From IMG/VR virus record IMGVR_UViG_3300011005_000053: a DNA stretch of 64,000 bases; one strand, written 5' to 3'. The DNA comes from a virus. A program made the translations under genes and the position numbers. Under the pieces are notes generated by a model, which had not been told where the DNA came from, ran no database searches, and saw only the letters and a list, made by a program, of their open reading frames with translations. How positions within the stretch are numbered: the stretch's first letter is position 1; each line of letters opens with the position of its first letter. Below are positions 11,490-54,126 of the stretch, one piece after another.

Positions 11490-11588
11490 GCGCCTACACT
11501 CCTCCTCCCATAAGCACCCGGCGCAGGTATTCAGTTCACGGTTCACTCCTGCATAATCCTTTCGTAGTTGCTTTCACAGCCGGTAAAA

Positions 11589-11610
11589 TGTGAGTACCCT
11601 AATTCTGATT
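11589..11610 (-). promoter_or_regulatory. degenerate copy of the conserved 22-bp element (AATCAGAATTAGGGTACTCACA), in a 5' UTR
   Basis: Reverse complement matches the recurring motif, with CTCACA in place of TTGACA and no -10 box. It lies between an upstream promoter/terminator and the 45-aa gene. Confidence 0.5.
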
Positions 11611-11643: not shown

Positions 11644-11652
11644 TCTAAGATC

Positions 11653-11698
11653 AGTATAGCACAAAAAGTTGGATTTGTCAATACCCTAATTCTGATTT
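11653..11698 (-). promoter_or_regulatory. leftward sigma-A type promoter carrying the conserved motif (AATCAGAATTAGGGTATTGACA-18-TATACT)
   Basis: -35 TTGACA at 11676-11681 and -10 TATACT at 11653-11658 on the minus strand. Consensus upstream extension AATCAGAATTAGGG. Confidence 0.6.
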
Positions 11699-11722
11699 CC
11701 GACGAGGGGTCGTCGGGTTTTT
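11699..11722 (+). terminator. hairpin CCGACGA-gggg-TCGTCGG plus TTTTTG
   Basis: Stem followed by a T-run on the plus strand, at the boundary of the divergent control region. Confidence 0.4.
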
Positions 11723-11764
11723 GAAAAATGGCTGCCGATAATGTGGTATTTTGGCGGCCGATCC

Positions 11765-12135
11765 TTAAAAGAAAGAGAAGCTGGAGTAAGAGAAAGAAAA
11801 TATATATATCATTCTAAAAGAATATCTCTTATATACTTTATATTCTAATATTATATATATTAAATTATTAATATAAGTAAAGTATATATAAAATCATTTT
11901 AGTAAGAGAAGTATAGAACGTAAAGTATTATTCTTACTAAAAGGATAGAGTAAAGTATTAATCCAACTAAAAGGATAGAGTAAATGATTATGCTTACTAA
12001 AAGTATTATGAGAATGATTACTCATACTTAAATGAATAGCAGTAAAGTATTGGTAATACGTAAATGATATAGGAAATGATATGTCTTAGTAAAATCATTT
12101 ACTTTGACCAAGTATATTATTATTCATACTCCGGA
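11765..12135. repeat. AT-rich iteron block (~25% GC); candidate replication origin or partition site
   Basis: Three tandem ~29-bp units beginning ACTAAAAGGATAGAGTAAA at 11936-12020. Repeated GTAAAGTATT appears about 4 times and GTAAATGAT about 3 times, with a sharp GC drop relative to the ~52% flanks. Confidence 0.45.
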
Positions 12136-12539
12136 AAAAAAGTTTGGAGTGATGCTTTGTTAGGGGCGCAGCGGCCCTCCAAAGCCGCGTGCGCCCCGGA
12201 TGTTAAAGAATAACGATGGCGGTGAACTCCCTCGCTTTTGAGCTGTTAGATGTAAAGGCTTGGTGTCAAAAGCTTGGTCGTTCACCTTGTACATAACGTA
12301 AAGCATTTGTAGCTGGTAAAGCAGTAGCAGCTGGGGTTTAACTTCCTCAGTTTTGCCATTTTGCTGTACCGGCTTTTTTGTTGTTGTACCTGCAAAGCTT
12401 CGGTCGTTAAACCCGCACATGCAATTTTGATCCGTTACAGGCCGATTTTTCGCGGGTCCGGCATAAATCATTCTGGTATGGCGAGATCTCGGTTTTTGGG
12501 ATGGTTTAATTTATCGAACAGTGAGCGCTAGGAGATTAG

Positions 12540-12690
12540 GTCGTGATTAAATTATTGGAATGAGTGTGTTGCGGTAGGTATGTGATGGAATGTAATTGTG
12601 GTGGGAGCGAGGTGCGAAAATGTGGAAAATTTTGTGAGGGTGAGGTGGAATAACTAAGGTCGTGTTTCGCCCGAATTTTTGGAAAAGATT
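12540..12690. other. strand-asymmetric G+T-rich tract almost devoid of C on the plus strand, inside a ~1.2-kb apparently non-coding region
   Basis: Read directly from the sequence: GTGTGTTGCGGTAGGTATGTGATGGAATGTAATTGTGGTGGGAGCGAGGTG...GTGAGGGTGAGGTGG. Only low-complexity ORFs overlap it. Confidence 0.4.
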
Positions 12691-13334
12691 GTAAACTAAC
12701 CCATAACATTTTACGTCCTTTTTTGAGCAAATAGGACATAAAACACGGTAAAATCCGAACTTTTCGCCGTTTACTTGACTTTTCCGTATGTTCTGTTATG
12801 TTGAGAGTGCAAGGAGGGAAAGACAAGTTCATAGATAGATAGGCAAAGGGTTAGCAGTCTTAACAGACTATATGCCGTTTCTTAACAGAAATTACCCTTA
12901 TATCCAATCAGTCTATGCGTGTACTTTGATAACGGAATACATCTCACAAGCCGCAACAGGGGCGTTTTCTATCGTGTTCCCTTGTCGCAATGGGTAGGGC
13001 TTGCCATACCTATAACGTCGGGTTAATCGATGTGTAAAACATGGGTGGATTGCGTCAATGACCAGCTTTAGGGCGGTGCGTGAAGTGTATGCGTGTATAA
13101 CTAACCGTGAAAAAGGCGGCTGCGGGTGTACTATGCCCTTTTCAGCGCAACCTGGTTCTCTGCCGGGGCACTGTTGGCAAAGGGGGCATAGTAAGCTGGT
13201 GGACAGCGCGATATTACGGGACACTCTTGAAGTGTATGCTTTGCATTGACTTGACAGCGCAATCTTTGCGCCGTGATGTGAGTGCAAAACTCAAAAATAT
13301 TTTATTCCGGCAAAGCCGGGGAAAGGACTATACC

Positions 13335-14015
13335 ATGACTATCAATCTCATCAACTCTATCCGTGCCAACCGTGCCAACACCAAGACTGTCCCCATCGAT
13401 TGCTATGGGGAGAACGCTAAGCAGGACTGGACTACGTTCCGTGACGCTCTGTATGACTGGAGTCTGATCGATTCCAAGAAAGACGCAAGCGCCGCCTTTG
13501 AAGCGGGCAAGGCTATCTTTGCGTCTATCAACGCCGACCTCGACGACATCCGCCGTATCCGCTTTGACGGTGTGGCCGACCTCGCCCGCTACCGTGACGC
13601 CGCCGTGACGTTCCGCAATGTCGATAATGCGGAGACCGCCGCGCTCAAGACTGTGCTCGCCCTCGCTCGCTATCGTGCCGGGGACGCCGACAAGGCCAGT
13701 TTCGCAGGGACTGACTATGCCTATGCCTGCAAACTCGCCGGGGTAGAGCCACGCCCCGACTACTCCATGGACGCCGACGTGGCTACCGCCCTTGCCGCAA
13801 AGGTGGAGACTATGCTCGCCGACTCCAAGGAGTCCAAAGAGTCGAAGCAGAAGGTCAAGGCGCCCGTGGGCGTCGAAGCGTTCCGCAAGGCTTGCGAAGT
13901 GCTCGTGGCCGAGAAGCTCGACGATGTCATGTCCAAGACCGTCGCCGAACTCGACGCCGAGCGCAAGGCTCGCAACAAGGCCCGCGCCGCCGCTCGCAAG
14001 ATTGCCGCCAAGTAA
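13335..14015 (+). CDS. hypothetical protein (Ala-rich C-terminus); first gene of the rightward early block
   Basis: GGGGAAAGGA plus ATG at 13335. High-GC coding region. The track start at 13107 lacks an RBS. Confidence 0.55.
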   Translation: MTINLINSIRANRANTKTVPIDCYGENAKQDWTTFRDALYDWSLIDSKKDASAAFEAGKAIFASINADLDDIRRIRFDGVADLARYRDAAVTFRNVDNAETAALKTVLALARYRAGDADKASFAGTDYAYACKLAGVEPRPDYSMDADVATALAAKVETMLADSKESKESKQKVKAPVGVEAFRKACEVLVAEKLDDVMSKTVAELDAERKARNKARAAARKIAAK

Positions 14016-14272
14016 GGCGATACTGAGAGCCCGCCCGATGAGTCGCTGAAAATTGCGACGAAACGCCCCTGCCCGGGGCGTCGTGGGACAAGCTTCGCAA
14101 ACCCACAAAATAATAGCGCCCATATGCGGCAACATACAGGCGCTAAGAAAGGGGGTGTAGTATCACGAGGGGATACTATACCCAAGCCGGCTATTGGGGC
14201 TGGGTAGGAAATCGGTATATCCTGTTCGCGACAGAACAGGAATATTGTGACTACATAGCCTGATAGCACGAC

Positions 14273-14303
14273 GGGCGCCCGGTTTACCGCCGGGCGCTTT
14301 TTA
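14273..14303 (+). terminator. rho-independent terminator (GCGCCCGG...CCGGGCGC TTTTTAT)
   Basis: 8-bp GC stem plus T-run. Confidence 0.6.
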
Positions 14304-14342
14304 TCTTAACACGAAAACGGAATTTTTGCAAGGAGGAAAATT

Positions 14343-14657
14343 ATGCGTACCAACAGAATTTTACCGTTGCGCTTTGAGCGCAACCTGTCTGCGGCGGATA
14401 CCGCCGATGCCGGTATCGAATTCACTTATTGCGCTGACTGCGGCGCGATGATCGAAGCGAATTCGGTTGTCACTGTGCACGCCAATGGCGCTGAGCGCGC
14501 CGTTTGTGGCCAGTGCGCCGAGGAGGGTTATGAGTGGTGCTACGGGTGCAGCGCTTTCTTCGACCGCGGCGATATGTTGGTCGATATGCGCACCGGCGAC
14601 TACTTTTGCCGCCGGTGTAGTAGCAATCCCATTAGTTTCTACTGTTGTAAGCCGTAA
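14343..14657 (+). CDS. Cys-rich zinc-ribbon protein
   Basis: AAGGAGGAAAATT then ATG. Several CxxC pairs. Confidence 0.6.
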   Translation: MRTNRILPLRFERNLSAADTADAGIEFTYCADCGAMIEANSVVTVHANGAERAVCGQCAEEGYEWCYGCSAFFDRGDMLVDMRTGDYFCRRCSSNPISFYCCKP

Positions 14658-14705
14658 TTAAAAAAGCGCCCGGCAAGGGCGTCATTTTTATAAGGAGGAT
14701 TTGAA

Positions 14706-14933
14706 ATGGATTTTGAACATTGGAAAGAGAAACTGCGCAAATTATGTGCCGGTTTCGACCTCACGTTCCGTGAGGAAAACGGCAATTTTTACGCCGTTTC
14801 AGGCAACACGGAAATGCATTCCCACAAGGGAAGCACCCGTGTGTACATTAGAAGTTCCGAACGCAATCGCGGCGTCGGGACTTCTTTCAACAGGGATGAC
14901 GGATATGTGTCCGTCAATTTGCAGGAGGTGTAA
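14706..14933 (+). CDS. hypothetical protein
   Basis: AAGGAGGATTTGAA then ATG. A weak terminator lies upstream at ~14666-14692. Confidence 0.55.
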   Translation: MDFEHWKEKLRKLCAGFDLTFREENGNFYAVSGNTEMHSHKGSTRVYIRSSERNRGVGTSFNRDDGYVSVNLQEV

Positions 14934-14935
14934 AA

Positions 14936-15241
14936 ATGAAAGCGAAACTTGCCGGCATTATGACCGCGATCATGCTTCTGGTTTCCGCTTTGGTCTCGGC
15001 GGAAGTCATTTATCCGGAGACTATGGTCATCACGCATCTTGACTATGCCAATGACATGGTCATCTGCGAAACCGCAAACGGGCATGAATTTGCCTTTTGC
15101 GGCATCGAAGATTACCAGCAGGGCGAGCTGGTGAGCTGTATCATGTACAGCGGCTTCACGCCCGAGATCTTCGACGATGAATTCCTTGCCACATATTACA
15201 GCGGCTGGTCTTTCGAAAACGTTTCCGCGATCATTCGATAA
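14936..15241 (+). CDS. small secreted/membrane-anchored hypothetical protein
   Basis: N-terminal hydrophobic signal-like segment (MKAKLAGIMTAIMLLVSALVSA). Confidence 0.55.
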   Translation: MKAKLAGIMTAIMLLVSALVSAEVIYPETMVITHLDYANDMVICETANGHEFAFCGIEDYQQGELVSCIMYSGFTPEIFDDEFLATYYSGWSFENVSAIIR

Positions 15242-15285
15242 CAAATACATATCCCGGCATGAATCCGGGAGAAAGGAAGGCAAAA

Positions 15286-16047
15286 ATGGCAAAGCAGGTT
15301 ATGATTTGGGAAGCAGAGGATGGAGCGCAGTTCGTCAAGCGCGAGGACTGTGAGCGCCACGAAATGGCACAGGCGCAGATCTATATGGAGCGCCTGAAAG
15401 ACGAAGTGAGGTATCGGGAAGTGCCCCTGTTTGAAGAGAGGCGCTATGGCGCTTATTTGGTGTCGCCGGTAACGATTCTGACCGCCACGCCGCGCTCCAT
15501 GAAAGAGCTGATCGACATTGCGGAATACATGCGCAAGGAGATCAGTGAATCCATCGACCTCATGCCCGGCTTCCGCTTCAATGCGGCCAAAAATGAGGTT
15601 TACTACGCCGAGCCGGCGGCGTTTCCTATGACCTATTCCGTCATGGTTGAGCGTTACCGCAAGCGCAAGCACCCGATCGTGAAACTGTTCACTGGTCGGG
15701 AATTTGCCAAACTGGCGAATCTGATTACCGGCCATATTCCCGATTCGGATATCGCGGCGGTCACATTCCGCGAAGATGATTCCGATGAAATCGCCTACGC
15801 CGAACCCGACGACTACAAGCCCGTGATGGGCTTTGGCAGCAGTGACGCCGAGACGAAATGGGAAAACGCCAAACATCCCGGCAGACCGCGCATGATCGTA
15901 GTCAACGGCGAAGTGCACAACATGTCCGAGTGGGCGAGAATCTCCGGCCTTAGCCTGAACACGATCAGCAGCCGCATCAATATTCTTGGCTGGGATCCGG
16001 TTGCCGCCGTGACCACTCCCGCCCATTCCCGCAAAATTTCTGGCTAA
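15286..16047 (+). CDS. hypothetical protein with C-terminal HTH-like segment
   Basis: GGGAGAAAGGAAGG then ATG at 15286. C-terminal WARISGLSLNTISSRINILGW. Confidence 0.5.
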   Translation: MAKQVMIWEAEDGAQFVKREDCERHEMAQAQIYMERLKDEVRYREVPLFEERRYGAYLVSPVTILTATPRSMKELIDIAEYMRKEISESIDLMPGFRFNAAKNEVYYAEPAAFPMTYSVMVERYRKRKHPIVKLFTGREFAKLANLITGHIPDSDIAAVTFREDDSDEIAYAEPDDYKPVMGFGSSDAETKWENAKHPGRPRMIVVNGEVHNMSEWARISGLSLNTISSRINILGWDPVAAVTTPAHSRKISG

Positions 16048-16092
16048 AATCAGAAATAGGGTATTGACAAGATGGAATTTTCGGACTATACT
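16048..16092 (+). promoter_or_regulatory. conserved-motif promoter (AATCAGAAATAGGGTATTGACA-17-TATACT)
   Basis: TTGACA at 16064-16069, TATACT at 16087-16092. Confidence 0.55.
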
Positions 16093-16162
16093 ATGAATCA
16101 CAATCGTAACCGGGCCTTGGCAATAGCCTCGGCTGAGGGAGCGATGGAAAGGAAAATCAAAA

Positions 16163-16309
16163 ATGAAAACGCAGCGTATATTCGGCGCGATTCTAATTGG
16201 AATCGCAATTCTGGGCCTGATCGTGTGCCCGGAAGAGGGCGCAGGGTGTGTCTTTGTGGGCGTCCTGGGTGTGGCGGCACTCGTCAGCCACAAAAATTTT
16301 TGCCCCTAA
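16163..16309 (+). CDS. small hydrophobic membrane peptide (48 aa)
   Basis: GGAAAGGAAAA then ATG. Sequence MKTQRIFGAILIGIAILGLIVCPEEGAGCVFVGVLGVAALV. Preferred over the overlapping Arg-rich 83-aa track ORF. Confidence 0.4.
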   Translation: MKTQRIFGAILIGIAILGLIVCPEEGAGCVFVGVLGVAALVSHKNFCP

Positions 16310-16311
16310 AT

Positions 16312-16333
16312 AATCAGAAATAGGGTAATCACA
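16312..16333 (+). promoter_or_regulatory. degenerate copy of the conserved element (AATCAGAAATAGGGTAATCACA) upstream of tRNA-Gln
   Basis: No -10 box. Followed by the hairpin GGCGCTCC-gcaa-GGAGCGCC (16337-16358) and then the tRNA. Confidence 0.45.
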
Positions 16334-16362
16334 AATCGGCGCTCCGCAAGGAGCGCCAACAT

Positions 16363-16436
16363 AGGCCCGTGGTGTAACGGCAGCACAACAGACTTTGACT
16401 CTGTTGGAATTGGTTCAACCCCAATCGGGCCTGCCA
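16363..16436 (+). tRNA. tRNA-Gln (anticodon TTG), CCA encoded
   Basis: Hand-folded cloverleaf. Acceptor AGGCCCG/CGGGCCT, D stem GUGU/GCAC, anticodon arm ACAGA-CUUUGAC-UCUGU, T arm AUUGG-UUCAACC-CCAAU, discriminator G then CCA. Confidence 0.7.
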
Positions 16437-16473
16437 AACAGAATTAAAGACCAATTTTAGGAGGAATGGATTT

Positions 16474-16710
16474 ATGTGCGAATTTTGCGATCTCCGCTAT
16501 GACGAATCCGGTAGATATAGCCGGGATAAACAAAGAACGACCACTGTTGTAGATGGTGCGTGGACGTCAATTGTGCGCGGCGTGGAGCCAAATAACAGGC
16601 TGTTTCTGGAGGGAGTAGGCGATGACACAACAGATCGCTATTATCCGAAATACTGCCCGGAATGCGGCCGCAAGCTCACACTTAAAGTGAAGGTTAAAAA
16701 GAGAAAGTGA
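16474..16710 (+). CDS. zinc-ribbon small protein
   Basis: AGGAGGAATGGATTT then ATG. CxxC...CxxC. Confidence 0.6.
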   Translation: MCEFCDLRYDESGRYSRDKQRTTTVVDGAWTSIVRGVEPNNRLFLEGVGDDTTDRYYPKYCPECGRKLTLKVKVKKRK

Positions 16711-16746
16711 AATCAAAATAAAATTTGCTTATAGGAGGAAAGAATT

Positions 16747-18516
16747 ATGAGCACCGAATTAAGATTCCATACCGGCGATAAGGTGCGCATCCTGCGGCGG
16801 CTGTTTGGCCACAGCTTGACGATCGGAGGCGTGTACGAAGTTGAAGTGCATGATGTCAACTATAAGGCCAAGGGCGTTCGGGTCGCGCCGTACTTCACAG
16901 ACAAGGAGTGCGGCCCGGTTTGGGAGGTGGGCGACCTTGTCCGTGTCGTGCCGAGCGCTAACGAATTCGGCCACAACTACATGGTTGGCGATTTGTGTGA
17001 GGTCGAAATCGTCTATAACCATTCGCTGCATCTTGTGCGCAAACCTGATAATCTGCGTCAGGCTGTGCTGCCCGCGGACATTGAGTGGGTGCGGCGTGGA
17101 AATATCACTGCAGAAAACGAAATTGAAAATAAGGAGAAAAGCGACATGAAATACGAAGTCAACGGCGAAATGTACACCGCCGAGGAACTGGAGGAAATGG
17201 GTTATAAGCGCTGCTGCGATTGCGGTGAGTGGCTGCCCGCAGACGAATTTGAATACGAATATCACGGCGACCCGCTGTGCAACAGCTGCTTCGAGGACAA
17301 CTATTTTGTCTGCGAAGACTGCGGCGAAGTTGAACATGCGGACGATATGGTGACCGTGTATACATATCGCGGCGGTGAAAAATACGTTTGCTCCTACTGC
17401 GCCGATCGCAACTATTACCAGTGCATCGACTGCGGCGAACACTTCATCCGTCGCGCCGGATACGTTGATTCCAACGACGATTTCCTCTGCGACAACTGCT
17501 ATGACGATCATTACTGGCATACCTGTGATGATTGCGGCTGTTTTATCGCCGAGGGGAATGAGTATTACTCCGAATACGACGACAACTGCTACTGCGACAA
17601 CTGCATCGGCGATCACGAAGGAGGAATCGGGTCGTATCACGCTCATAAGGGCGAATACGAATACAACATCGGATATATGCCCGGCGAGGATTACTACAAC
17701 ACTTTGACCTTCGGCATCGAGGACGAAATGGATGACGGCGACGATCCGTGTGAGTGCGTGGATGCCATGTCCGCCATTACCGATCGCGTCGTGTTCGAGC
17801 ATGATGGCAGTCTGAGCGATGACGGGTTTGAAATGATTTCGTATCCGGGATCTCTCCGCTATCACATGGAGAAAATGCCTTATGCGGATCTATTCAGAAA
17901 GGCAAGCGACTATGATTACAAGTCTCACGACACCGACACCTGCGGCCTGCATATCCATGTCGGACGTAGCTGCCTAACCAACAGCGATACATACAAAATC
18001 GTTATGCTGGCCAAGCGGTTTGAAAAGGAATTGACCAAGTTCAGCCGCCGCAGATCCGAAAACCTTTCCCAGTGGGCAAGCTTCGGACGCATGTTGACCG
18101 AGTATGATCCCGACAAGATTTACAACGACGTAAGAGCCAGCGACGTGATCAATTTCGGTAATCGGTATCAGGCGGTCAATCTGACAAATCGTTCTACGAT
18201 CGAATTCCGTATCTTCCGTGGAAGTCTGGTGCGCGACACCGTGATTTCCTCGATTCAGCTTGTCAGCAACATCTGCCGCTATGCCATGGAGCATAGTTGG
18301 GAGGAAGTCTGCACGTCTAAGTGGAAAGAGGTGGCGCTCTACGAGGAATTCGATGAGCTCCACGCTTACATGGTGGTCCGGAAGCTGATTCCGGACGAGC
18401 TGCCGCCGGAGGATATGCCCGAGGTCGAAGACGATGTCACGCCTCGTGTGGCTTTGCGCCAGCACACGGTTTCTATCCCGGACCCGGTGGCGGCGATCAC
18501 ACCTTCGCTGTCCTGA
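16747..18516 (+). CDS. amidoligase-family enzyme fused to N-terminal tandem zinc-ribbon (CxxC) repeats
   Basis: C-terminal half has GLHIHVGR and TIEFRIFRGSL, typical of phage amidoligases (glutamine-synthetase/GCS2-like). The N-terminal ~300 aa carry at least 8 CxxC pairs. Confidence 0.6.
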   Translation: MSTELRFHTGDKVRILRRLFGHSLTIGGVYEVEVHDVNYKAKGVRVAPYFTDKECGPVWEVGDLVRVVPSANEFGHNYMVGDLCEVEIVYNHSLHLVRKPDNLRQAVLPADIEWVRRGNITAENEIENKEKSDMKYEVNGEMYTAEELEEMGYKRCCDCGEWLPADEFEYEYHGDPLCNSCFEDNYFVCEDCGEVEHADDMVTVYTYRGGEKYVCSYCADRNYYQCIDCGEHFIRRAGYVDSNDDFLCDNCYDDHYWHTCDDCGCFIAEGNEYYSEYDDNCYCDNCIGDHEGGIGSYHAHKGEYEYNIGYMPGEDYYNTLTFGIEDEMDDGDDPCECVDAMSAITDRVVFEHDGSLSDDGFEMISYPGSLRYHMEKMPYADLFRKASDYDYKSHDTDTCGLHIHVGRSCLTNSDTYKIVMLAKRFEKELTKFSRRRSENLSQWASFGRMLTEYDPDKIYNDVRASDVINFGNRYQAVNLTNRSTIEFRIFRGSLVRDTVISSIQLVSNICRYAMEHSWEEVCTSKWKEVALYEEFDELHAYMVVRKLIPDELPPEDMPEVEDDVTPRVALRQHTVSIPDPVAAITPSLS

Positions 18517-18546
18517 TTACATAACAAATAAAGGAGGAATGTGCCT

Positions 18547-19554
18547 ATGTGCATTATTGCGGCGAAACCTGCAGGGGTTGAACTCCCAGACGAGAATATC
18601 TTCTACAACATGTGGACAAACAATTCGGATGGTGCCGGCATCATGTATGTGAAAGACGGCAAGGTGCGTATCGAAAAGGGGTTCATGAAATACACCGACT
18701 TCACGTCCGCGCTGTCTTCTCTGAAACGGAAAATGAATCTGAAGAACACGCCGATGGTATTCCACTTCCGCATTACGACCCACGGCGGAACCAGCGAGGA
18801 AAATTGTCATCCGTTTCCTGTGACGCGGAGCATTGAAATGCTCAAAAGGAAAACGTGTGCAACCGCGCTGGGCGTGGCTCACAACGGAATCATTTCATCC
18901 GTGACCCCGCGCAAAGGAATCAGCGACACGATGGAGTATATTGCCACGCAACTTGCTCCGCTTTATGCATCCATGCCGAGCTTCTATCGCGATCCGAATC
19001 TGGTCGAGATGATCTCCAATGCCATCAAGAGCAAAATGACTTTTCTGAACAGCAAGGGCGAGATCTACACCATTGGCGATTTCATCGAAGACAAGGGCAT
19101 CATGTACTCGAATTCGACTTACAAAATGCGGATGTACTATCCGTCCTATTCCTATTGGGATGAAATGGATGGCGGCTGGGGATACGGTTATGACAAGGAC
19201 GAGGGGATCTGCCGGGATGAAAAGCTGCTCATGTGGTGCGATCTTCTGCCGGACGGCTCCTACGCTTTCGATTTCAGTTCCGGTGAAATGTGCGACGATC
19301 TGACAGAGTTTCGTATGGATTCCTGCGGCAATGTCTACTGGTACGACCCGGACATGGATGCCTGCGAGCAGATCGAGGAAATCGGAATTTACCTGCCGGA
19401 CGGCAACACACCGAAGTTCGATCCCGAACTCGCTGCATATGAAGCGGTCGTGGATTGGGACGCTATCGCCGCTGCCTATGAGGAGGCGGACAAGAAGCGC
19501 AATGAGGCGCTGGTTGTGGTGGACGAGAAACCAAAAAAGAAAAAGAAAAAGTGA
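18547..19554 (+). CDS. class-II (Ntn) glutamine amidotransferase-like protein
   Basis: Begins Met-Cys (MCIIAAKP), the Ntn-hydrolase catalytic Cys1 arrangement. AAAGGAGGAA plus 9 nt then ATG at 18547. Classic partner of phage amidoligases. Lysine-rich tail. Confidence 0.6.
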   Translation: MCIIAAKPAGVELPDENIFYNMWTNNSDGAGIMYVKDGKVRIEKGFMKYTDFTSALSSLKRKMNLKNTPMVFHFRITTHGGTSEENCHPFPVTRSIEMLKRKTCATALGVAHNGIISSVTPRKGISDTMEYIATQLAPLYASMPSFYRDPNLVEMISNAIKSKMTFLNSKGEIYTIGDFIEDKGIMYSNSTYKMRMYYPSYSYWDEMDGGWGYGYDKDEGICRDEKLLMWCDLLPDGSYAFDFSSGEMCDDLTEFRMDSCGNVYWYDPDMDACEQIEEIGIYLPDGNTPKFDPELAAYEAVVDWDAIAAAYEEADKKRNEALVVVDEKPKKKKKK

Positions 19555-19566
19555 GGGGGAATCGAC

Positions 19567-19791
19567 TTGATCACGTTGAGTGAAGCCTTTAAGCTCTGTC
19601 AGATCCGTGACGATGAGGTGGTAAGAATGGTGAAGGAAGGAGATTCCTACCCGTGGTACGCGCCATCCTTCTATACCGGAGCAGAAATCCGGAAGCGTAT
19701 GGATATGAAAAAGATTCAGGTCGTCCACATTCGTCCATACTTTGCCTTCTATGAATACCAAGGAATGGCATTTGAAGTGCGCGGCCTGTAA
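19567..19791 (+). CDS. hypothetical protein (TTG start)
   Basis: GAGGGGGAA plus 6 nt then TTG. Confidence 0.4.
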   Translation: MITLSEAFKLCQIRDDEVVRMVKEGDSYPWYAPSFYTGAEIRKRMDMKKIQVVHIRPYFAFYEYQGMAFEVRGL

Positions 19792-19818
19792 CGAAATTTA
19801 GTTTGATTGGAGGACACA

Positions 19819-20289
19819 ATGAAAAAATGCGCAGTGTTATATACCAATACGCTTACAGGGGAGGAACGATGGGCTTGCAGTTATGATGAACACGGCTGTT
19901 CGTATTGCCTTCGGCCGCGTATATCAGTCATTCCTCGCGATCACAATGACGCTGCGGAATTCTACGGTAAAAACCGCAAGAAACGAGCAATCAAAATGAT
20001 AAACAATGATCAAAAATTTCACAGATGGTATGGGTGGAAAGCATCCATCATCGAGTATGACGGTGATCCGCATTGGTATTTTGAACTCCAATATGTTCTT
20101 GCAAATCAATACGGTAATCATTTTTATGAGCAAGTCCCGAAGCGTTTCCCTCTGCGTGAAGATGTCAAATATCGTTTGGTTGGCTCAAATACAAGGCCAC
20201 TCATCTGTGACCTGCCGCTCGATGAATTGCAACGCCTATACGAATGGCGTAAAGCGAATTATAAAGGCAAAATCAAAGAAGAAATTTAG
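19819..20289 (+). CDS. hypothetical protein
   Basis: GGAGGACACA then ATG at 19819. Confidence 0.55.
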   Translation: MKKCAVLYTNTLTGEERWACSYDEHGCSYCLRPRISVIPRDHNDAAEFYGKNRKKRAIKMINNDQKFHRWYGWKASIIEYDGDPHWYFELQYVLANQYGNHFYEQVPKRFPLREDVKYRLVGSNTRPLICDLPLDELQRLYEWRKANYKGKIKEEI

Positions 20290-20309
20290 ATTTGATAGGA
20301 GGAATGCGT

Positions 20310-20645
20310 ATGTTGGACTATATTGACGGCCTTGATCCAGAAGAAAAATACTCGGACGGTCCTGTTATGTTCTCGGCTTACGACCAAACATGGGATTACA
20401 AAACGCGGGCACAGCTCAGAAACGAGTATAACGTTATTTATAACGGCGGCATCTGGGCATACATGAAAATCGGAACTGCCGACCATCCACTCGTAGCGGT
20501 TGGGTTTGAAGACGATGGTACGATCCAGTTCCCGAGACAATACGGGCAGTTTACACACTGTTTCTCGCCTTATTGGATAGACTCGATTATCAGTGGACTT
20601 CAAGACATGAAAAAGCTCTGTGAAACCCGCGCAGAAATTGAATAG
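20310..20645 (+). CDS. hypothetical protein
   Basis: GATAGGAGGA plus 7 nt then ATG. Confidence 0.55.
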   Translation: MLDYIDGLDPEEKYSDGPVMFSAYDQTWDYKTRAQLRNEYNVIYNGGIWAYMKIGTADHPLVAVGFEDDGTIQFPRQYGQFTHCFSPYWIDSIISGLQDMKKLCETRAEIE

Positions 20646-20655
20646 GAGGATTTTT

Positions 20656-21015
20656 ATGAGACGAGTTGTAGACGACAGAATGTACGGCGTTATTTCGGAT
20701 CAGATCAACAAACTGATCTGGTCGCTCGACCCGAAGCCGCTCAGCGCATACTCCTGGGGTATGGATCGCGTCGATGTCGGCAAGGTGCGAGACGCGATCG
20801 CAGCACGAATTCCCAATATCAAATTCGGCAAAAACGAACACGCAAATGGAATTGTAAATAACAATGCCTATGAAATCATCTACACCGGCAACCAGCGAGA
20901 GGAACAGATCTGTGGCCTGCTCCATCTGACGGACGACATGTGTGGCGGCGTGATCTGTTGGGTGTCCGATGTGGATGGCACGACGAAAACGCCGAGCAGG
21001 AAGCTGAGAGTATAA
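20656..21015 (+). CDS. hypothetical protein
   Basis: ATAGGAGGATTTTT then ATG. Confidence 0.55.
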   Translation: MRRVVDDRMYGVISDQINKLIWSLDPKPLSAYSWGMDRVDVGKVRDAIAARIPNIKFGKNEHANGIVNNNAYEIIYTGNQREEQICGLLHLTDDMCGGVICWVSDVDGTTKTPSRKLRV

Positions 21016-25506: not shown

Positions 25507-25560
25507 AACCAGAATTAGGGTATTGACAAATGCGCGGAGGCGTGAATTGAATATTGGTCC
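25507..25560 (+). promoter_or_regulatory. conserved-motif promoter (AACCAGAATTAGGGTATTGACA) with weak -10
   Basis: TTGACA at 25524-25529. The -10 is poor (ATTGAA or TATTGG). Confidence 0.45.
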
Positions 25561-27189: not shown

Positions 27190-27252
27190 CGAGTGCGAAG
27201 CGGGCTGCTGAAAAGCAATTCGCTTCGCCCTCCCAACTGGAAAGGAGTGTAT

Positions 27253-28050
27253 ATGGGAGAGCTGATCCTGTTTGATCCGACGAAGCCGAGAAACACGGAT
27301 TATGAAGTTGTACAGAGTGCGTTCCACGGAAGAAACGAAATCGCAAGAAGTCATGCTGCGACACCGATCAAGCGCATTGAAGATATCATGCTGGTCGAAG
27401 ATTATATCCTGAACCGGCGGGACTACCGCAAAGAGGAAATTCGTCTGCGGGATTACCTGATGTTCGTCATGGGAATCAATTTCGGCCTGCGGGCAGGAGA
27501 CCTGCTGCGGCTGCAGTACGGACACATCCTGGAGCCGAACGGGCGAGTGCGTGATATGATCGAGCTGATCGAGGAGAAAACGGAAAACACAAACGCCAGA
27601 CTGAAACGCCGGCATGTGTATGTGAACGACGACGTGTTCGACGCGCTGAAAATTTACATGTCCGGCCGCCGCATCGATCTGGATGATTACCTGTTTACCA
27701 GTCAGAGCAACAACGTCGGTCTCTGGGACGAATCCAAATGCCTGTCACGTCGCAACGCTGAGCGCATTCTGAAACAGATCGTGGAAGCAGAGCTGAAATT
27801 GGACGTTCACGCCAGCACCCACATGATGCGGAAGACGTTTGCGTATCAGACGCTGATGAGTGTGCCGGATCGAAACCGGGCGCTTGAGATCGTGCAGACG
27901 ATCCTGAACCACTCCACGCCGCAGATGACCATGCATTACATCGGTATCACGGAAGATGAGATCCAGAACGCTTACAAAACCTTAAGTCTCGGTCTGGGTC
28001 GGAAGAACGGAATGGATTTCTACCGCAGTTCGGGAGCGTGGGCCGTATGA
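27253..28050 (+). CDS. tyrosine recombinase B (XerC/D-sized)
   Basis: HMMRKTFAYQ (HxxR) and LNHSTPQMTMHYIGI (H...Y) catalytic motifs. GGAAAGGAG then ATG. Confidence 0.75.
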   Translation: MGELILFDPTKPRNTDYEVVQSAFHGRNEIARSHAATPIKRIEDIMLVEDYILNRRDYRKEEIRLRDYLMFVMGINFGLRAGDLLRLQYGHILEPNGRVRDMIELIEEKTENTNARLKRRHVYVNDDVFDALKIYMSGRRIDLDDYLFTSQSNNVGLWDESKCLSRRNAERILKQIVEAELKLDVHASTHMMRKTFAYQTLMSVPDRNRALEIVQTILNHSTPQMTMHYIGITEDEIQNAYKTLSLGLGRKNGMDFYRSSGAWAV

Positions 28051-29483: not shown

Positions 29484-29698
29484 AACGGTTCAGAACCACC
29501 AGACGTGTGCGCCGGCTTTGCGGCGAGACACTGCAGACTTATGGCGAGAACGCCGTACTGTATTTCGACCACCGCGAGGGAGGGAAATACGCGGCTGTCT
29601 ACTATGACCCGGCCAACAATCAGATGATCTTGGTCGAGTCCCACGACGTGTCAGCCCCTAAGCTCGAACTGGATTTCACAAAATTTTCGAAAAAATAA
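29480..29698 (+). CDS. hypothetical basic protein
   Basis: ATGA overlap. Confidence 0.45.
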   Translation: MKRFRTTRRVRRLCGETLQTYGENAVLYFDHREGGKYAAVYYDPANNQMILVESHDVSAPKLELDFTKFSKK

Positions 29699-29738
29699 GA
29701 ATTAGGGTATTGACAAATCGGCGCAAATGTGCTATAGT
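29694..29738 (+). promoter_or_regulatory. conserved-motif promoter (AAGAATTAGGGTATTGACA-17-TATAGT)
   Basis: TTGACA at 29710-29715, TATAGT at 29733-29738. Confidence 0.6.
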
Positions 29739-29761
29739 TACACACGAAGGGAGGTCGTTGT

Positions 29762-30121
29762 ATGAACAGAATACCGGATTTCGGTGACGTTTACGTCGCC
29801 AGCCTAACCGTGAATGGCAGTGTGCAGGGAGGAATCCGCCCCGTGATCATCGCGCAGAACAACACGGGCAATCAGCACAGTCCCACGATCGAAGTCATTC
29901 CGATGTCCAGCCGTGTCGGCAAGGCCAGCTATCTGCCGACGCACGTTGTGATCAGTGCCGAACAGGAAAACGGATTGCGTCAGGACAGCATCGCGCTGAC
30001 CGAACAGACGCAGACCATCAATCAGTCGCAGCTCAGCCGCAAGCTCGGTCATCTTACATGGAACGACCTGATCCGTGTGGGACGAGCCCGGCGCGTACAA
30101 TCTCCATTTCCAACAGAATAA
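29762..30121 (+). CDS. MazF/PemK-family endoribonuclease toxin-like protein
   Basis: GDVYVASL...GSVQGGIRPVIIAQNN...IEVIPMSS...HVVISAEQENGLRQDSIALTEQTQTINQSQL fits the Kid/PemK/MazF fold pattern. GAAGGGAGG plus 7 nt then ATG. It has its own strong promoter. Confidence 0.65.
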   Translation: MNRIPDFGDVYVASLTVNGSVQGGIRPVIIAQNNTGNQHSPTIEVIPMSSRVGKASYLPTHVVISAEQENGLRQDSIALTEQTQTINQSQLSRKLGHLTWNDLIRVGRARRVQSPFPTE

Positions 30122-30165
30122 ATCAGAAATAGGGTATTGACAAACTCGCTTACATATGGTATAAT
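30121..30165 (+). promoter_or_regulatory. conserved-motif promoter (AATCAGAAATAGGGTATTGACA-17-TATAAT)
   Basis: TTGACA at 30137-30142, TATAAT at 30160-30165. The best consensus copy. Confidence 0.65.
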
Positions 30166-30190
30166 ACCTGTAATGCGAGGAGGAATGTTC

Positions 30191-31123
30191 ATGTTCAACC
30201 CGGAGATCAAACAAAAATTCATCGAATCTTTAAGTAAAGCGGACGTCGTGCAGGCCACCTATTCCATGGGGCGCATTGCGGAAATGATCGAGGAGCCGCT
30301 GAACACCGACTATTTTGAACTGGTCGCCGCAGGACGCACAAAAGAGATCTATCAAAGCGTCGAGGAAAAAGGAACCACTATTGCCTATAGGACCTACCGC
30401 AATATTTTTCATTACGGCAAGCTGTATGTCCGCTGGCGCTGCATTACAGACGGCGTGTTCGTCAACGAAAAAGACCACCCGACCATCGCAAACGGGGAGA
30501 CGTACAACTTTTCCCTGACGCCCGCCTTTTCCAAACAGCTTGTGCTGACAGAGAACGATCTGGAGCTCGTGTGCAACAAACTCCGCAACTACCGCGAAAG
30601 CGCACAGCTTCCGGTCATCTACTGTCTGGCGTGGCTGGGGCAGAGCGCCGAGGACATCCGCACTCTGAAAGAAAATGAGGTATACTTCTCAGGCGACGGC
30701 AGCGTTATGATCGGGAACCACATGATCGACGACGGTTTTGTGTCCCGCAAGCTGCATGAATACGCCGAGACAGAGGTCGTGATCGGCAACGCCGCCCCGC
30801 TGGAGAAGGCAGACGGCGACACTTTTTACCGCAGATTTGTGAAGCGTGGCTCCGCCAAAAACAAGCCGATCGGAACCCGGTTTTTATCCAACACCATTAC
30901 GGAGGCCGGCGCCGCCATCGGCCAGGAGGTTGTGGTATCCATCCGCGACCTGAATTATTTCGGCGCCTTCGCCGAGATCCGGGCTTTTACCGAAAAATAT
31001 GGCATCCAGGCGGACGCCAGTCATATTGTTCGTTTCTTCGGAGTCAAAAGCACGACACACAAAAACGACCTTTTGCACGCCTACCAATGTTATTTGGAAG
31101 CCGTAAAAGAAAGGGGCGGTTAA
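30191..31123 (+). CDS. hypothetical protein (310 aa)
   Basis: GAGGAGGA plus 6 nt then ATG at 30191. Confidence 0.5.
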   Translation: MFNPEIKQKFIESLSKADVVQATYSMGRIAEMIEEPLNTDYFELVAAGRTKEIYQSVEEKGTTIAYRTYRNIFHYGKLYVRWRCITDGVFVNEKDHPTIANGETYNFSLTPAFSKQLVLTENDLELVCNKLRNYRESAQLPVIYCLAWLGQSAEDIRTLKENEVYFSGDGSVMIGNHMIDDGFVSRKLHEYAETEVVIGNAAPLEKADGDTFYRRFVKRGSAKNKPIGTRFLSNTITEAGAAIGQEVVVSIRDLNYFGAFAEIRAFTEKYGIQADASHIVRFFGVKSTTHKNDLLHAYQCYLEAVKERGG

Positions 31124-31148
31124 CCGTCCTTTTCTTTTCGGATCATAA

Positions 31149-31170
31149 AATCAGAATTAGGGTATTCACA
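31149..31170 (+). promoter_or_regulatory. degenerate conserved element (AATCAGAATTAGGGTATTCACA) 5 nt upstream of the tRNA cluster
   Basis: TTCACA in place of TTGACA. Any -10 would fall inside the tRNA. Confidence 0.45.
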
Positions 31171-33211: not shown

Positions 33212-33233
33212 AATCAGAATTAGGGGATTCACA
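33212..33233 (+). promoter_or_regulatory. degenerate conserved element (AATCAGAATTAGGGGATTCACA) abutting the start of the annealase gene
   Basis: It ends 2 nt before the TTG start at 33236. No -10 box and no SD. Confidence 0.4.
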
Positions 33234-45902: not shown

Positions 45903-46209
45903 TAAATATCTGGGATTTGTCGATCGGTATTTAAGCGACGAAGAGCTCGCCGCCTTCTACAGCGATCTTACGTTTAATCGCTTCGATCTGTTCCGAAACG
46001 AATATCTGCTCCTCACAGATATTGATGGCAACACGATCGATACATACCGCTGGAACGGCGAAACGCATGTCCGCGTTCCGACCAAGCAGATCAAAACCAG
46101 ATATCTTGGTACGATCCGCCCCCGCAACCCGCAGCAGGTATGCGCGATCGATATGCTTTACAACACGGATATGACCGTCAAAATGCTACAGGGGCCTTTT
46201 GGCTCGGGT
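45895..46209 (+). CDS. phoH: PhoH-like ATPase, exon 1 (ends within Walker A GPFGSGK)
   Basis: IRPRNPQQVCAIDMLYNTDMTVKMLQGPFGSGK matches the PhoH N-terminus and P-loop. The reading frame then falls into an insertion. Start TTG at 45889 or 45895. Confidence 0.6.
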
Positions 46210-47324
46210 AAAATCTTGCCCCGCCGCGCGGCAACGCTCGGTTGACAATCTTGTAAATTGCTGGAACACCCTGAGAGCCGCACAGACCACAGCGTGAGGA
46301 TGAAACGCCTGGGCGCGATGGTGTGAAAACAGTGCGGATTGGGCAATCAGCAGCCAAGCCCCGAATAGGGGAAGGTTCAACGACTATCCATAAGGAGTAG
46401 GGCGCAAGCCCGAAAAACAAGACGACCCGATATATTGCCATTAAACAACGGGAGGTGAAAGAGTGACAAAGAGGACATGGACACAAGAGCAGGTTGACGA
46501 CATTGTTCATATGTATACCGTCCAGCGCTGTACACAAAAAGTGATCGCGGCAAAGTATAGCGCCAAAGTACAAACTATCAGTGGCATCCTAAAAGCTCAT
46601 AACGTTTCTATCAACTATCGCAAGGGCGCAAATCGCCATATGAACGATCAGTATTTCGATGTAGTTGATTCTGCTGAAAAGGCGTACTTCTTGGGATTAT
46701 TATTAACCGACGGAAGCGTGATTTATGATGCTGAGCGCATTAGGCAGCCAGAAATCAGCATTGAGCTTATAGAGAGTGACGTCGAGATCTTGCACAGACT
46801 GCGTGACGCGATCGGGTTGAGCACCAAGCTGTGCTATGCAAAGCGAGCAGGCAGAAAACATGGTACATATACTCTGAAATTTCGATCGGCGCACATGGCG
46901 TCTACTCTTGCTGCTTATCATATCGTGCAAGATAAAACCCATCGCGTTCGCGTACTGCCACAAAATATCCCCGAACAATATATGAAAGATTATGTTCGTG
47001 GATTAATTGACGGTGATGGCAGTATTTATTTTAGCCAAGGGTCATGGCACATCAATTATTGCGGTCACTTTCAATCACTGGTACGCGATGTCGGAAATGT
47101 GTGCTGCAGCATGATCGGGAGAGATGCACCGCTCAAAATCCAGGTGAGCGATAATGTATACCGTATAACGTTTAATGGTGCGTGGGCACAAAAATTGGCG
47201 TCGGCGCTTTATGATAACGCAGATATTGCAATTGCTCGTAAATACCGTTTGGCAATAGCGGCAATGCGAGGATAATAGGGTCGAAGATATAGTCTAACCC
47301 TCGCCGAAAGGCGAGGTAGCAGTG
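46210..47324 (+). mobile_element. group I intron in phoH carrying a LAGLIDADG homing endonuclease
   Basis: The 5' exon ends ...TCGGGT (U). A GCCC(C)G guide-like element follows the junction. GACTATCC at ~46400 and ATAGTC at ~47288 are P7-like strands. The intron ends in G. Exon 2 has no RBS. Junction positions are approximate. Confidence 0.55.
46463..47275 (+). CDS. LAGLIDADG homing endonuclease
   Basis: Two motifs, YFLGLLLTDGS and VRGLIDGDGSIY. AT-richer codon usage. Confidence 0.75.
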   Translation: MTKRTWTQEQVDDIVHMYTVQRCTQKVIAAKYSAKVQTISGILKAHNVSINYRKGANRHMNDQYFDVVDSAEKAYFLGLLLTDGSVIYDAERIRQPEISIELIESDVEILHRLRDAIGLSTKLCYAKRAGRKHGTYTLKFRSAHMASTLAAYHIVQDKTHRVRVLPQNIPEQYMKDYVRGLIDGDGSIYFSQGSWHINYCGHFQSLVRDVGNVCCSMIGRDAPLKIQVSDNVYRITFNGAWAQKLASALYDNADIAIARKYRLAIAAMRG

Positions 47325-52947: not shown

Positions 52948-54037
52948 TATGCACCGCCATCGTTTGCTTCCGCTTGTCATTCTGCTGATACTCGTTATTC
53001 TGACGCAGACAGCTTATATAGCGCTCGGGCCCGAGCATGACCTGTACAGCGATGTTTCCCGCAACGCCGATTACTACGAAGCCGTCGCATGGGCCACATC
53101 CAACGGCATTACAAATGGCACAGGAAATAGCCGGTTCTCCCCGGACGATCCCGTGACCACACGTCAGTGGGCCGTCATGCTGTGCCGCGCCTTCCGCGTC
53201 GAGAGCGCAATAAATGACAATGGGGCTTTTGGAGACGCCAGCTTGTCGCACGCATTCGATCGCGGTTGGATCGACGATGTCGCCGTAACAAGTCCTGAAT
53301 CTTCATGGTGCAGATGGAACCTGTACAAAAGCGCGTTTCGCGCCTACGGCATTTCTGTATATCCAAACGAAGTCTATGGCGGGGAGCATATGACAACGAC
53401 AGAAAATGTAATGCGCACCGCTTATCAGGTCGGCCTGTGTGAAGCGTATGCGGCAAGCGGCGTGATTTCCACGCGAGCAGAAGCTGTATCGGTCATTTAT
53501 CGTCTCGCCACAAACGATTGTGCGTCTATGATCAAGGCGCCGGAATTGCTGCAAATAGAAGCGTCAAAAAATGTTGATCTCGCGCCATATTACGACGAGC
53601 TCGTACACTTACCGACGGCGATCGTGCAGGCGTTTATAGATGAAGGTTGGCAGATCAAACTTGATTTTGATTACCTCTGCCGGCTCGGCGATCAATACAA
53701 CGCATCCGTTATCGGAGCGACCTCGGCCACATCGAAAGTGATCTTTCTTGAATGTCCGCATGCTATGGCTCATGAGTTTGGACACTTCCTCGACCACTAT
53801 CTCGGAGACGTATCAAACGATCCGCTTTGGGAAGAGGAGATCCGTTTGGGGCAGGCATACTTAAGAGATTATGCCGAGACCAATGTCAAGGAATACTTTG
53901 CCGAGGCGTTTGCCTATTACGTCGGCCGCCCGAATTACCGCATTGCACTGGAAGATATGCAGCAATTCACTCCGCAAACCTATGAATTCTTCCGCGATCT
54001 TGAAGCGCACAACTGGGAATCAGAATTAGGGTATTGA
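52937..54037 (+). CDS. secreted zinc metalloprotease (HExxH) with N-terminal signal/TM and an SLH-like segment; moron-like
   Basis: ECPHAMAHEFGHFLDH zincin motif (anthrax-lethal-factor-like family). Signal peptide LLPLVILLILVIL. FSPDDPVTTRQWAVML is SLH-like. Alternative start at 52949. Confidence 0.55.
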   Translation: MVIDMHRHRLLPLVILLILVILTQTAYIALGPEHDLYSDVSRNADYYEAVAWATSNGITNGTGNSRFSPDDPVTTRQWAVMLCRAFRVESAINDNGAFGDASLSHAFDRGWIDDVAVTSPESSWCRWNLYKSAFRAYGISVYPNEVYGGEHMTTTENVMRTAYQVGLCEAYAASGVISTRAEAVSVIYRLATNDCASMIKAPELLQIEASKNVDLAPYYDELVHLPTAIVQAFIDEGWQIKLDFDYLCRLGDQYNASVIGATSATSKVIFLECPHAMAHEFGHFLDHYLGDVSNDPLWEEEIRLGQAYLRDYAETNVKEYFAEAFAYYVGRPNYRIALEDMQQFTPQTYEFFRDLEAHNWESELGY

Positions 54038-54062
54038 CAAGTGCGCAACAATGTGATATAAT
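54018..54062 (+). promoter_or_regulatory. conserved-motif promoter (AATCAGAATTAGGGTATTGACA-17-TATAAT)
   Basis: TTGACA at 54034-54039, TATAAT at 54057-54062. Confidence 0.6.
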
Positions 54063-54069: not shown

Positions 54070-54126
54070 GTAGGGGTGGAGAACCACCTTCTTTCACCCC
54101 TACATATCAGAAATAGGGTAATTACA
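54070..54126 (+). promoter_or_regulatory. leader hairpin (GTAGGGGTG...CACCCCTAC, 9-bp stem) followed by a second, degenerate motif copy (TATCAGAAATAGGGTAATTACA)
   Basis: Hairpin at 54070-54103, motif at 54105-54126, then the RBS GAAGGAG. Same tandem arrangement as at 11589-11698. Confidence 0.45.

Follow-up and report, generated by a model that had tools for sequence, protein, structure and literature searches.

A repeated 22-bp box in a distant SPbeta-like phage, the predicted operator of an MrpR/SroF-like repressor

Introduction

Why would a phage carry nearly identical copies of one long sequence both within strong promoters and at places where no promoter can be found? The question is raised by a 64,000-nt stretch of viral DNA, IMG/VR virus record IMGVR_UViG_3300011005_000053 (hereafter the window), in which a 22-bp element, AATCAGAAWTAGGGTANTNACA (hereafter the box), recurs before genes and transfer RNAs. 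An earlier examination of this DNA made from its letters alone, referred to below as the sequence-only reading, had noticed the two contexts and had proposed that the box might be the site of a phage regulator, a recognition site of a phage polymerase, or an RNA processing signal. The analysis presented here favors the first of these proposals. The box is probably the operator of a 310-aa master repressor of the MrpR/YopR/SroF type, which would make it the counterpart of the SPBRE element of phage SPbeta and of the 26-bp box of phage phi3T, with the promoter-less copies as predicted roadblock operators.

Both of these counterparts have been described in Bacillus phages, and the repressor family is known to read a long asymmetric box, 15-26 bp in length, that recurs 10-20 times over their genomes. 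SPBRE was predicted to be a repressor site in 1999 (Lazarevic 1999, cited in PMC10516654), and chromatin affinity purification sequencing (ChAP-seq) of the SPbeta repressor MrpR has yielded ten peaks, all of which lie on SPBRE (PMC10516654). MrpR is a monomer that adopts a tyrosine-recombinase fold from which most of the catalytic residues are absent, and it represses the promoters P-aimR and P-yosX (PMC10516654). The crystal structure of the phi3T repressor SroF bound to DNA shows a monomer that clamps a 26-bp asymmetric box and contacts 24 bp of it, and many such SroF boxes are spread over the phi3T genome (bioRxiv 10.1101/2025.11.27.690993).

Results

A Sharply Bounded Family of Eleven Boxes

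The window was searched with the pattern AATCAGAAWTAGGGTATTGACA, allowing up to three mismatches, and 100 dinucleotide-preserving shuffles served as the control. Exactly 11 copies were found (Table 1), and the shuffles gave no match at all. A position weight matrix (PWM) built from these copies and run over the whole window added none, which turns the earlier count of at least 11 into an exact one; members score 31-39 bits and everything else scores below 9 bits, a bimodal distribution without intermediate or eroded members. Most of the coordinates first proposed for the copies stand, with two amendments: the copy placed at 11653-11698(-) is confined to 11676-11697(-), the longer span having included the -10 element, and the copy placed at 25507-25529 ends at 25528.

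The copies are nearly invariant. Fifteen of the 22 columns do not vary, position 9 is either A or T, and positions 1, 3, 4, and 15 each deviate in one copy. At positions 17 and 19, variation is limited to the promoter-less copies, while positions 18 and 20-22 are invariant; at position 19, six copies have G and the other five have C or T. The box is asymmetric and non-palindromic, with an invariant TAGGG core, and shows neither self-complementarity nor a conserved structure; likewise, none of the boxes is hit by an Rfam family. Each of the 11 lies in an intergenic region and is oriented with local transcription, two on the minus strand, in the minus-strand gene block, and nine on the plus strand. 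Their flanks are mutually unrelated, and similarity ends sharply at the box edges.

The family is also restricted in its distribution. The scanned part of the late structural region is free of boxes, as are 7.5 kb of the ~95-kb source contig that lie to the left of the window. In three public collections (IMG/VR, GTDB genomes, and JGI metagenomes), the 16-mer core of the box never matched more than once per other contig, and these single matches are at chance level and in unrelated taxa, with the sole exception of the metagenomic contig L144 described below. A BLAST search of deposited phages with a 32-nt box query returned chance matches only (E ~3).

Boxes Fused to Promoters

Boxes of the first class (class 1) are fused to a promoter of the sigma-A type, in which the last 6 bp of the box are the -35 hexamer TTGACA, and the box, with the -35 included, spans positions -51 to -30. 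The hexamer is intact in all six copies that have G at position 19. Five of these six are the best promoter-like sites of their own regions, with a 17-nt spacer between TTGACA and TATAAT, TATACT, or TATAGT and a score of 11-12 of 12, and an extended TG is present in four of the five. The earlier description of the consensus copies as sigma-A promoters with a long conserved upstream extension is thereby borne out, although the claim that all six possess a -10 needs qualification: five have a strong one, whereas that of box 25507 is weak. This last site was not called by the promoter scan; a 9-bp hairpin follows it, with an open reading frame (ORF) of the GP88 family downstream.

Five other sites in the window with a perfect TTGACA (6368, 27067, 27162, 60018, and 61531), whose -10 elements are consensus or one base removed from it, lack the additional 16 bp. 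Since equally strong promoters occur without the extension and five boxes occur without a promoter, the box cannot be taken for a general property of promoters. An activator would be superfluous at sites so near to consensus, and repression is accordingly favored. The 16 bp beyond the -35 are best explained by a phage regulator, as one of the three earlier proposals had it, and a gene for an MrpR-like protein lies between the copies.

Several features adjoin these sites. The promoter at 11676(-) drives three small ORFs, a gene for a YonO-like RNA polymerase, and further downstream genes. Just upstream of it, an AT-rich, gene-free stretch (11770-12130) contains four to six repeats of a ~30-bp unit (AGTAAAGTATTA...CTAAAAGGATAG) together with several inverted repeats; these repeats are iteron-like and could be an origin, a partition site, or a packaging site. 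The 48-aa ORF behind box 16048 (MKTQRIFGAILIGIAILGLIVC...) is the sole gene between boxes 16048 and 16312. It has two hydrophobic segments of membrane type and is reminiscent of the small toxin gene yonT/spbT, which likewise lies behind an SPBRE in SPbeta. The consensus-grade, box-less sigma-A promoters at 27067 and 27162 precede a tyrosine-recombinase-like ORF (27193-28050; Pfam Phage_integrase). Equivalence of this ORF to YopP was considered and dropped for want of any pairwise similarity to YopP.

Boxes Without Promoters

The five boxes with C or T at position 19 form a distinct, promoter-less class (class 2), to be set against five to six copies that overlap promoters. No -10 was found at any of the five, in agreement with what had been reported for copies reading CACA or TACA. 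They end 2-42 nt before the start of the next gene or tRNA. Box 16312 is not in a plain 5' untranslated region but begins 2 nt past the stop codon of the 48-aa ORF. Box 31149 cannot be a degraded promoter, since its -10 would lie inside tRNA-Leu. At box 33212, a T-to-G change at position 15 converts TAGGGTA to TAGGGGA and thereby creates a Shine-Dalgarno-like AGGGGA 9 nt before the TTG of the Sak gene, and this box may double as the Sak ribosome-binding site (RBS).

Hairpins accompany most of these copies. The strongest, with A and T runs, lies at 31100..31141(+) (-25.8 kcal/mol, z -6.3), where it closes the repressor gene directly before box 31149, and an 8-bp GC hairpin of -18.5 kcal/mol follows box 16312. 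Box 54105, which is the most divergent copy (31 bits), is preceded by a strong hairpin at 54070-54103 (-20.2 kcal/mol, z -5.1), and box 11589 by a hairpin and T-run at 11628-11643 that is weak and folds no better than shuffles (z -0.73). These last two hairpins separate the members of the tandem pairs 54018/54105 and 11676/11589, each made of a consensus and a degenerate copy as previously observed, and both pairs have exactly the same spacing of 87 bp from start to start.

The position of the class-2 copies invites a different explanation, in which they, or all of the boxes, are signals for RNA processing or cleavage by the PemK/MazF endoribonuclease or a host RNase, freeing the 5' ends of tRNAs or messenger RNAs. 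It is consistent with this proposal that the class-2 copies are transcribed and lie so close before tRNAs or start codons, that all boxes end in ACA, and that a MazF-family gene is found among them. The lack of self-complementarity and of any Rfam match argues against it, however, as does the length of the conserved stretch, which far exceeds any known MazF or RNase site. The 5' ends of tRNAs are, moreover, already set by RNase P. The class-1 copies, which make up half of the family, stand upstream of their own transcription start sites and yet are conserved at the same positions, and in them the same box serves as the -35. An RNA signal, also among the earlier proposals, is accordingly regarded as highly improbable.

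An MrpR-like Protein Encoded Among the Boxes

The proposed binder of the box is encoded by the ORF at 30191-31123. This gene starts 49 nt past box 30121 and ends 25 nt before box 31149, such that it is flanked by boxes on both sides, and three of the 11 copies fall within the 1.5 kb around it. In a sequence search of the PDB, the sole matches with E < 0.001 were structures of SPbeta YopR/MrpR (8bj6, 8bjv, and 8a0a; E 2e-4 to 7e-4), and BLASTP against YopR gave 27% identity over 228 aa (E 3e-9). The N-terminus of the protein is conserved as MFNxEIKxKxxxxLS, and a profile of the protein and its relatives retrieves proteins that bear PF22822, the N-terminal core-binding domain of MrpR. When the clade was aligned by hhalign with a family alignment that includes YopR, phi3T SroF, and PF22822 proteins, the match extended over 264 columns and both domains (97.9% probability, E 4e-13). 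By sequence, the protein is thus a homologue of MrpR/YopR/SroF, which has an integrase fold and acts as the master repressor in SPbeta and phi3T.

From this homology and from the gene neighborhood, we infer that the MrpR-like protein is the binder of the box, and the box directly 5' of its gene, at 30121, is presumed to be a site of autoregulation. The proteins that had been named earlier as candidate binders (the HU-like protein, helix-turn-helix (HTH) proteins, and a 934-aa protein) are not the best candidates. The MrpR-like protein is preferred to them, and the 934-aa protein proves to be a YonO-like RNA polymerase.

Boxes in Related Contigs

Three Logan contigs encode an MrpR-like protein ~80% identical to that of the window, and all three retain a box before this gene and, ahead of tRNA-Leu, the class-2 box with C still at position 19. 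The box before the MazF gene is kept in both of the contigs that reach far enough upstream. Variation within these boxes is confined to positions 2-4 and the already variable position 9. An otherwise unrelated metagenomic contig of 1.3 kb (L144) contains a perfect 25-nt box followed by a 17-nt spacer and TATAAT.

Could the box, then, be nothing beyond a promoter, recently spread as a cassette by duplication, gene conversion, or mosaic recombination, with the class-2 copies as its decaying relics? The near identity of the copies would fit such a history, the occurrence in L144 is what a mobile promoter would produce, and orthologues cannot separate conservation of the box from that of its flanks. 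On the other hand, none of the 11 copies resembles another beyond the box edges, eroded intermediates are absent, and the changes specific to class 2 are confined to two sigma-critical positions with the other 20 left intact, which is not expected of random decay. Box 31149, in addition, was never a promoter in place, given the tRNA-Leu behind it, and is conserved in three related contigs. A cassette without further function is therefore considered very unlikely.

More distant relatives (L040-L046) were found through DnaE. One of them, L041, has a single occurrence of AATTAGGGTATTGACA with TATAAT, and a PemK gene and two MrpR-like genes lie downstream of it. Another, L046 (IMGVR_UViG_2811995030_000001; DnaE-related, AT-rich, 136 kb), has a repeat of its own, AAATAAAATACA, which occurs seven times within 22 kb (1716-20695) on one strand, two copies lying just upstream of a -35 (TTGACA and TAGACA) and several directly before an RBS. 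No MrpR homologue was detected in the stretch of L046 examined. Its repeat is a hint that the two-context pattern can be built with a different box. In MT835469, nothing comparable to the box family was found.

A PemK/MazF-family toxin gene stands directly upstream of the MrpR-like gene not only in the window (29762-31123) but also in L041 (1516-2924) and, twice, in the MrpR-bearing relative L055 (9570-10975 and 11708-13087). In SPbeta, YopM, a product of the repressor operon, acts on the host MazE/MazF system (PMC10516654), and the link between toxin and repressor may be conserved in another form.

The Window as a Distant SPbeta-like Phage

Compared with deposited phages by BLAST, the window matched nothing in the near mode and gave one weak match in the distant mode. 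Its affiliation is visible in its genes. The 934-aa ORF at 8050-10854(-) is 23% identical to SPbeta YonO over 590 aa (E 4e-9), retains the metal-binding motif ADFDSD, and is an RNA polymerase of the YonO-like, single-chain, two-barrel type. On its left are genes for an HU-like protein, a tyrosine integrase, and a terminase (TerL) similar to YonF, while structural genes just outside the window match the Pfam families YonD_N, YonB, YomW, YomV, and YomU. The plus strand encodes Sak, a primase-helicase, and a DnaE-type polymerase resembling YorL, and the gene order is collinear with that of SPbeta. By gene content and order, the window is a very distant SPbeta-like phage. The host is uncultured and probably not a Bacillus, judging by the GC content of 50%, an SLH-domain protein, and the gut-type relatives.

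The presence of this polymerase leads to a further proposal, that the boxes are promoters of the YonO-like enzyme or of a phage sigma factor, class 2 representing the pure form. In its favor, the class-2 boxes end a few nucleotides before RNAs, much as T7-type promoters do. In SPbeta, however, YonO serves one late operon, whose transcription has its single start 5' of yonK (PMC5467207), and the SPbeta P-YonO region is without an SPBRE. In the phage studied here, the stretch from the polymerase gene to those for the terminase and the structural proteins contains no box, nor do the 7.5 kb to the left of the window; the boxes instead precede early, replication, and immunity genes, among them the polymerase gene itself. 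By analogy with the single late promoter of YonO and with a late region free of boxes, recognition by a phage polymerase, the remaining earlier proposal, is scarcely credible.

Further features of this genome were noted. Homologues of the YonO-like protein are encoded in human-gut phage contigs and in Enterocloster phages, one of them annotated as 'RNA-dependent RNA polymerase'. A group I intron at 46200-47316 (Rfam RF00028, 69.7 bits) contains an internal 270-aa ORF (46463-47275), which is presumably a homing endonuclease; group I introns are present in SPbeta too, in its nrd genes. A role for LexA/Sar was also considered and rejected: the only perfect Cheo box, at 36806, belongs to the coding sequence of an ORF, where it encodes a conserved FETNSSS motif, and matches overall are at chance level.

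Table 1. Boxes and the predicted repressor gene in the window
Feature	Coordinates	Strand	Description
Class-1 box	11676..11697	-	-10 TATACT at 11653-11658, TG
Class-1 box	16048..16069	+	-10 TATACT at 16087-16092; drives 48-aa ORF 16163-16309
Intermediate box	25507..25528	+	TTGACA intact; weak -10 TTGAAT at 18 nt
Class-1 box	29694..29715	+	-10 TATAGT at 29733-29738, TG; upstream of PemK/MazF toxin gene 29762-30121
Class-1 box	30121..30142	+	12/12 promoter, -10 TATAAT at 30160-30165, TG; directly 5' of MrpR/SroF-like gene
Class-1 box	54018..54039	+	12/12 promoter, -10 TATAAT at 54057-54062, TG
Class-2 box TACTCACA	11589..11610	-	ends 42 nt before first ORF (GTG at 11546)
Class-2 box TAATCACA	16312..16333	+	starts 2 nt past stop of 48-aa ORF; ends 29 nt before tRNA-Gln (16363)
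Class-2 box TATTCACA	31149..31170	+	ends 5 nt before tRNA-Leu (31176)
Class-2 box GGGGATTCACA	33212..33233	+	ends 2 nt before TTG start of Sak annealing-protein gene
Class-2 box TATCAG...TAATTACA	54105..54126	+	ends 20 nt before next ORF (GTG at 54147)
MrpR/YopR/SroF homologue, 310 aa	30191..31123	+	proposed binder of the box

Discussion

A Proposed Model for Repression From Two Classes of Operator

In the proposed mechanism, the candidate repressor would be a putatively catalytically retired tyrosine-recombinase fold that binds as a monomer; the C-terminal alignment of the protein is unreliable for judging its catalytic residues. A monomeric clamp that reads ~24 consecutive bp would account for a box that is long, asymmetric, and near-invariant beyond the -35. 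At class-1 sites, repressor bound from -51 to -30 would bar sigma region 4 from the -35 and so silence the operon of the YonO-like polymerase, the small membrane protein, the GP88-like operon, the MazF toxin, the operon at 54 kb, and the repressor gene itself.

At class-2 sites, loss of the sigma-critical T17 or G19 would abolish recognition by the polymerase and leave recognition by the repressor intact, yielding operators without promoters. These sites are found past a start site and leader hairpin (11589 and 54105), behind the small gene that opens an operon and ahead of its remaining genes (16312), past the terminator of the repressor gene (31149), and before recombination and replication genes (33212). 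Repressor bound there would block the elongating polymerase and might insulate lytic genes from read-through in the lysogen, which could come from the repressor operon or from the promoters without a box at 27067 and 27162. Cooperative binding across the pairs spaced by 87 bp is an alternative to the roadblock.

Weighing the Assignment

Several results weigh against the assignment of the box to this repressor. The Pfam model MrpR_N_CB remains below threshold on the ORF (16 bits against a cut-off of 27), and the homologue is distant, at ~27% identity to YopR. An AlphaFold model built from a 12-sequence alignment is poor (pLDDT, the predicted local distance difference test, 55); Foldseek places 'Phi3T SroF bound to DNA' first for this model, followed by Cre and the Tn1549 integrase, all at E >=0.04, a ranking that is suggestive of the assignment although the match in fold is weak (E 0.044). 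The window also encodes two further tyrosine-recombinase-like proteins (5288-6382 and 27193-28050) and the HU-like protein, any of which could bind DNA instead. As regards the box, the orthologous contigs are too similar to prove selection on it, with flanks 93-96% identical and the box 98%, and the MrpR-bearing distant relatives L041 and L055 have no many-copy box in the ~20 kb available. The window box is unrelated in sequence to the SPbeta core (..ACAAATAATATGTATA..) and to the phi3T box (CAGTAATTTTATTTTTATTCTTAATG), and it comprises the -35 and the region upstream of it, whereas most SPBREs comprise the spacer and the -10. Finally, the roadblock or insulator role of class 2 is suggested by position and by analogy.

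To the mismatch in sequence, which sets a GC-balanced AATCAGAAWTAGGGTA core against the AT-rich boxes of SPbeta and phi3T, it can be answered that the boxes of SPbeta and phi3T also differ from one another, so that sequence is a feature of specificity and does not define the family. The points concerning the protein bear on another reading, in which the boxes are bound, for activation or repression, by some other phage or host DNA-binding protein, such as one of the two additional tyrosine-recombinase-like proteins, the HU-like protein, or a small regulator. This reading gains from the fact that the MrpR-like assignment is drawn from homology, to a distant protein, and from neighborhood, and from the further DNA-binding candidates in the window. 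Proteins of the HU type, however, do not read 20 specific bp, classical HTH repressors use short palindromes and not a long asymmetric box of the kind documented for SroF, and no activator is needed where a consensus -35 is combined with a 17-nt spacer and an extended -10. It is the MrpR-like gene, moreover, that is flanked by boxes on both sides. A different binder is judged unlikely, and the MrpR-like protein remains the preferred candidate.

If correct, this assignment would carry a system of repeated boxes and an integrase-fold repressor beyond the SPbeta-like phages of Bacillus, the only ones in which it has been studied, to a GC-balanced, uncultured relative at a great distance from them. 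In the window, the eye suffices to distinguish operator from promoter signals, the difference being the sigma-critical bases of the -35. Related metagenomic phages could be annotated by this practical rule, both for early promoters and for immunity regions. It would also provide biochemistry with a defined 22-bp site and a candidate protein.

Comparison With Known Systems

UP elements, a general feature of strong promoters, consist of A/T-rich sequence between -40 and -60 and are read by the C-terminal domain of the RNA polymerase alpha subunit. The box is like them in being a conserved sequence immediately upstream of the consensus -35 in very strong promoters. Unlike them, it has an invariant TAGGG core, is absent from equally strong promoters of the window, and occurs in five copies without a promoter.

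A closer resemblance is found in the operator and 'stoperator' sites of the gp71 repressor of Cluster A mycobacteriophages such as L5, reportedly described by Brown et al. in 1997. The sites of L5 are asymmetric and 13-14 bp long, 20-30 in number, each bound by a monomer of the HTH protein gp71. One class of site overlaps the -35 of an early promoter, whereas the many promoter-less copies lie in short intergenic gaps in a single orientation, and roadblock of the elongating polymerase has reportedly been demonstrated. The window shares with L5 both the promoter-less, asymmetric, and co-oriented sites in gaps and the sites that overlap the -35 of early promoters. It differs in having an integrase-fold candidate in place of the HTH protein gp71, a site of 22 bp in place of 13-14 bp, five promoter-less sites, and a roadblock that is predicted from position. 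No HTH repressor was detected among the ORFs scanned, gp71 itself not having been compared. The resemblance to L5 stoperators is therefore one of analogy and not of membership.

It is nevertheless tempting to speculate that the class-2 boxes are 'stoperators' for an integrase-fold clamp, a monomer that would encircle the DNA at gene boundaries, tRNAs included, with a G-to-C change at the -35 as the switch between promoter-operator and roadblock. This idea is put forward tentatively, as a possibility that we would not yet favor. To our knowledge, a genome-wide roadblock strategy is so far known from mycobacteriophages of the L5 type. Were the idea true, it would signify a second, independent invention of that strategy, and it would give a function to those boxes of SPbeta and phi3T that abut an RBS.

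Such boxes are well represented in both Bacillus phages. The SPbeta boxes (core AATATGTATA) lie within TAGACA-17-TATAAT promoters at yonP, yorE, yorZ, and yosX, and the aimR box immediately precedes the -35, while those at yonX, yopM, and yopV abut the RBS and have degenerate hexamers, yet are ChAP-seq peaks. The phi3T record contains at least 20 co-oriented boxes, many of them directly before an RBS. The combination of boxes on promoters with promoter-less boxes before genes is thus a habit of the whole SPbeta-like group. The two kinds are cleanly separable in the window, with its GC content of 50%, and hard to separate in AT-rich Bacillus DNA.

As in SPbeta and phi3T, some 10-20 copies of a long asymmetric box are distributed over the early region of the window, co-oriented and placed in promoters or before gene starts, and a homologous gene for an integrase-fold repressor is present. 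The 22-bp length fits a monomeric clamp that, like SroF, reads ~24 bp. As in SPbeta, one box precedes an operon of the yonP/yonO type and one precedes the repressor operon: box 11676(-) corresponds in position to the SPBRE at P-yonP, and the copies that surround the MazF and MrpR-like genes have their parallel in those of the SPbeta repressor operon. In contrast to both phages, no arbitrium genes were identified in the phage studied here. The box is best filed with the SPBRE and SroF-box kind, within which it is distinguished by its sequence, by its placement over the -35, and by promoter-less copies that can be told apart from those that overlap promoters.

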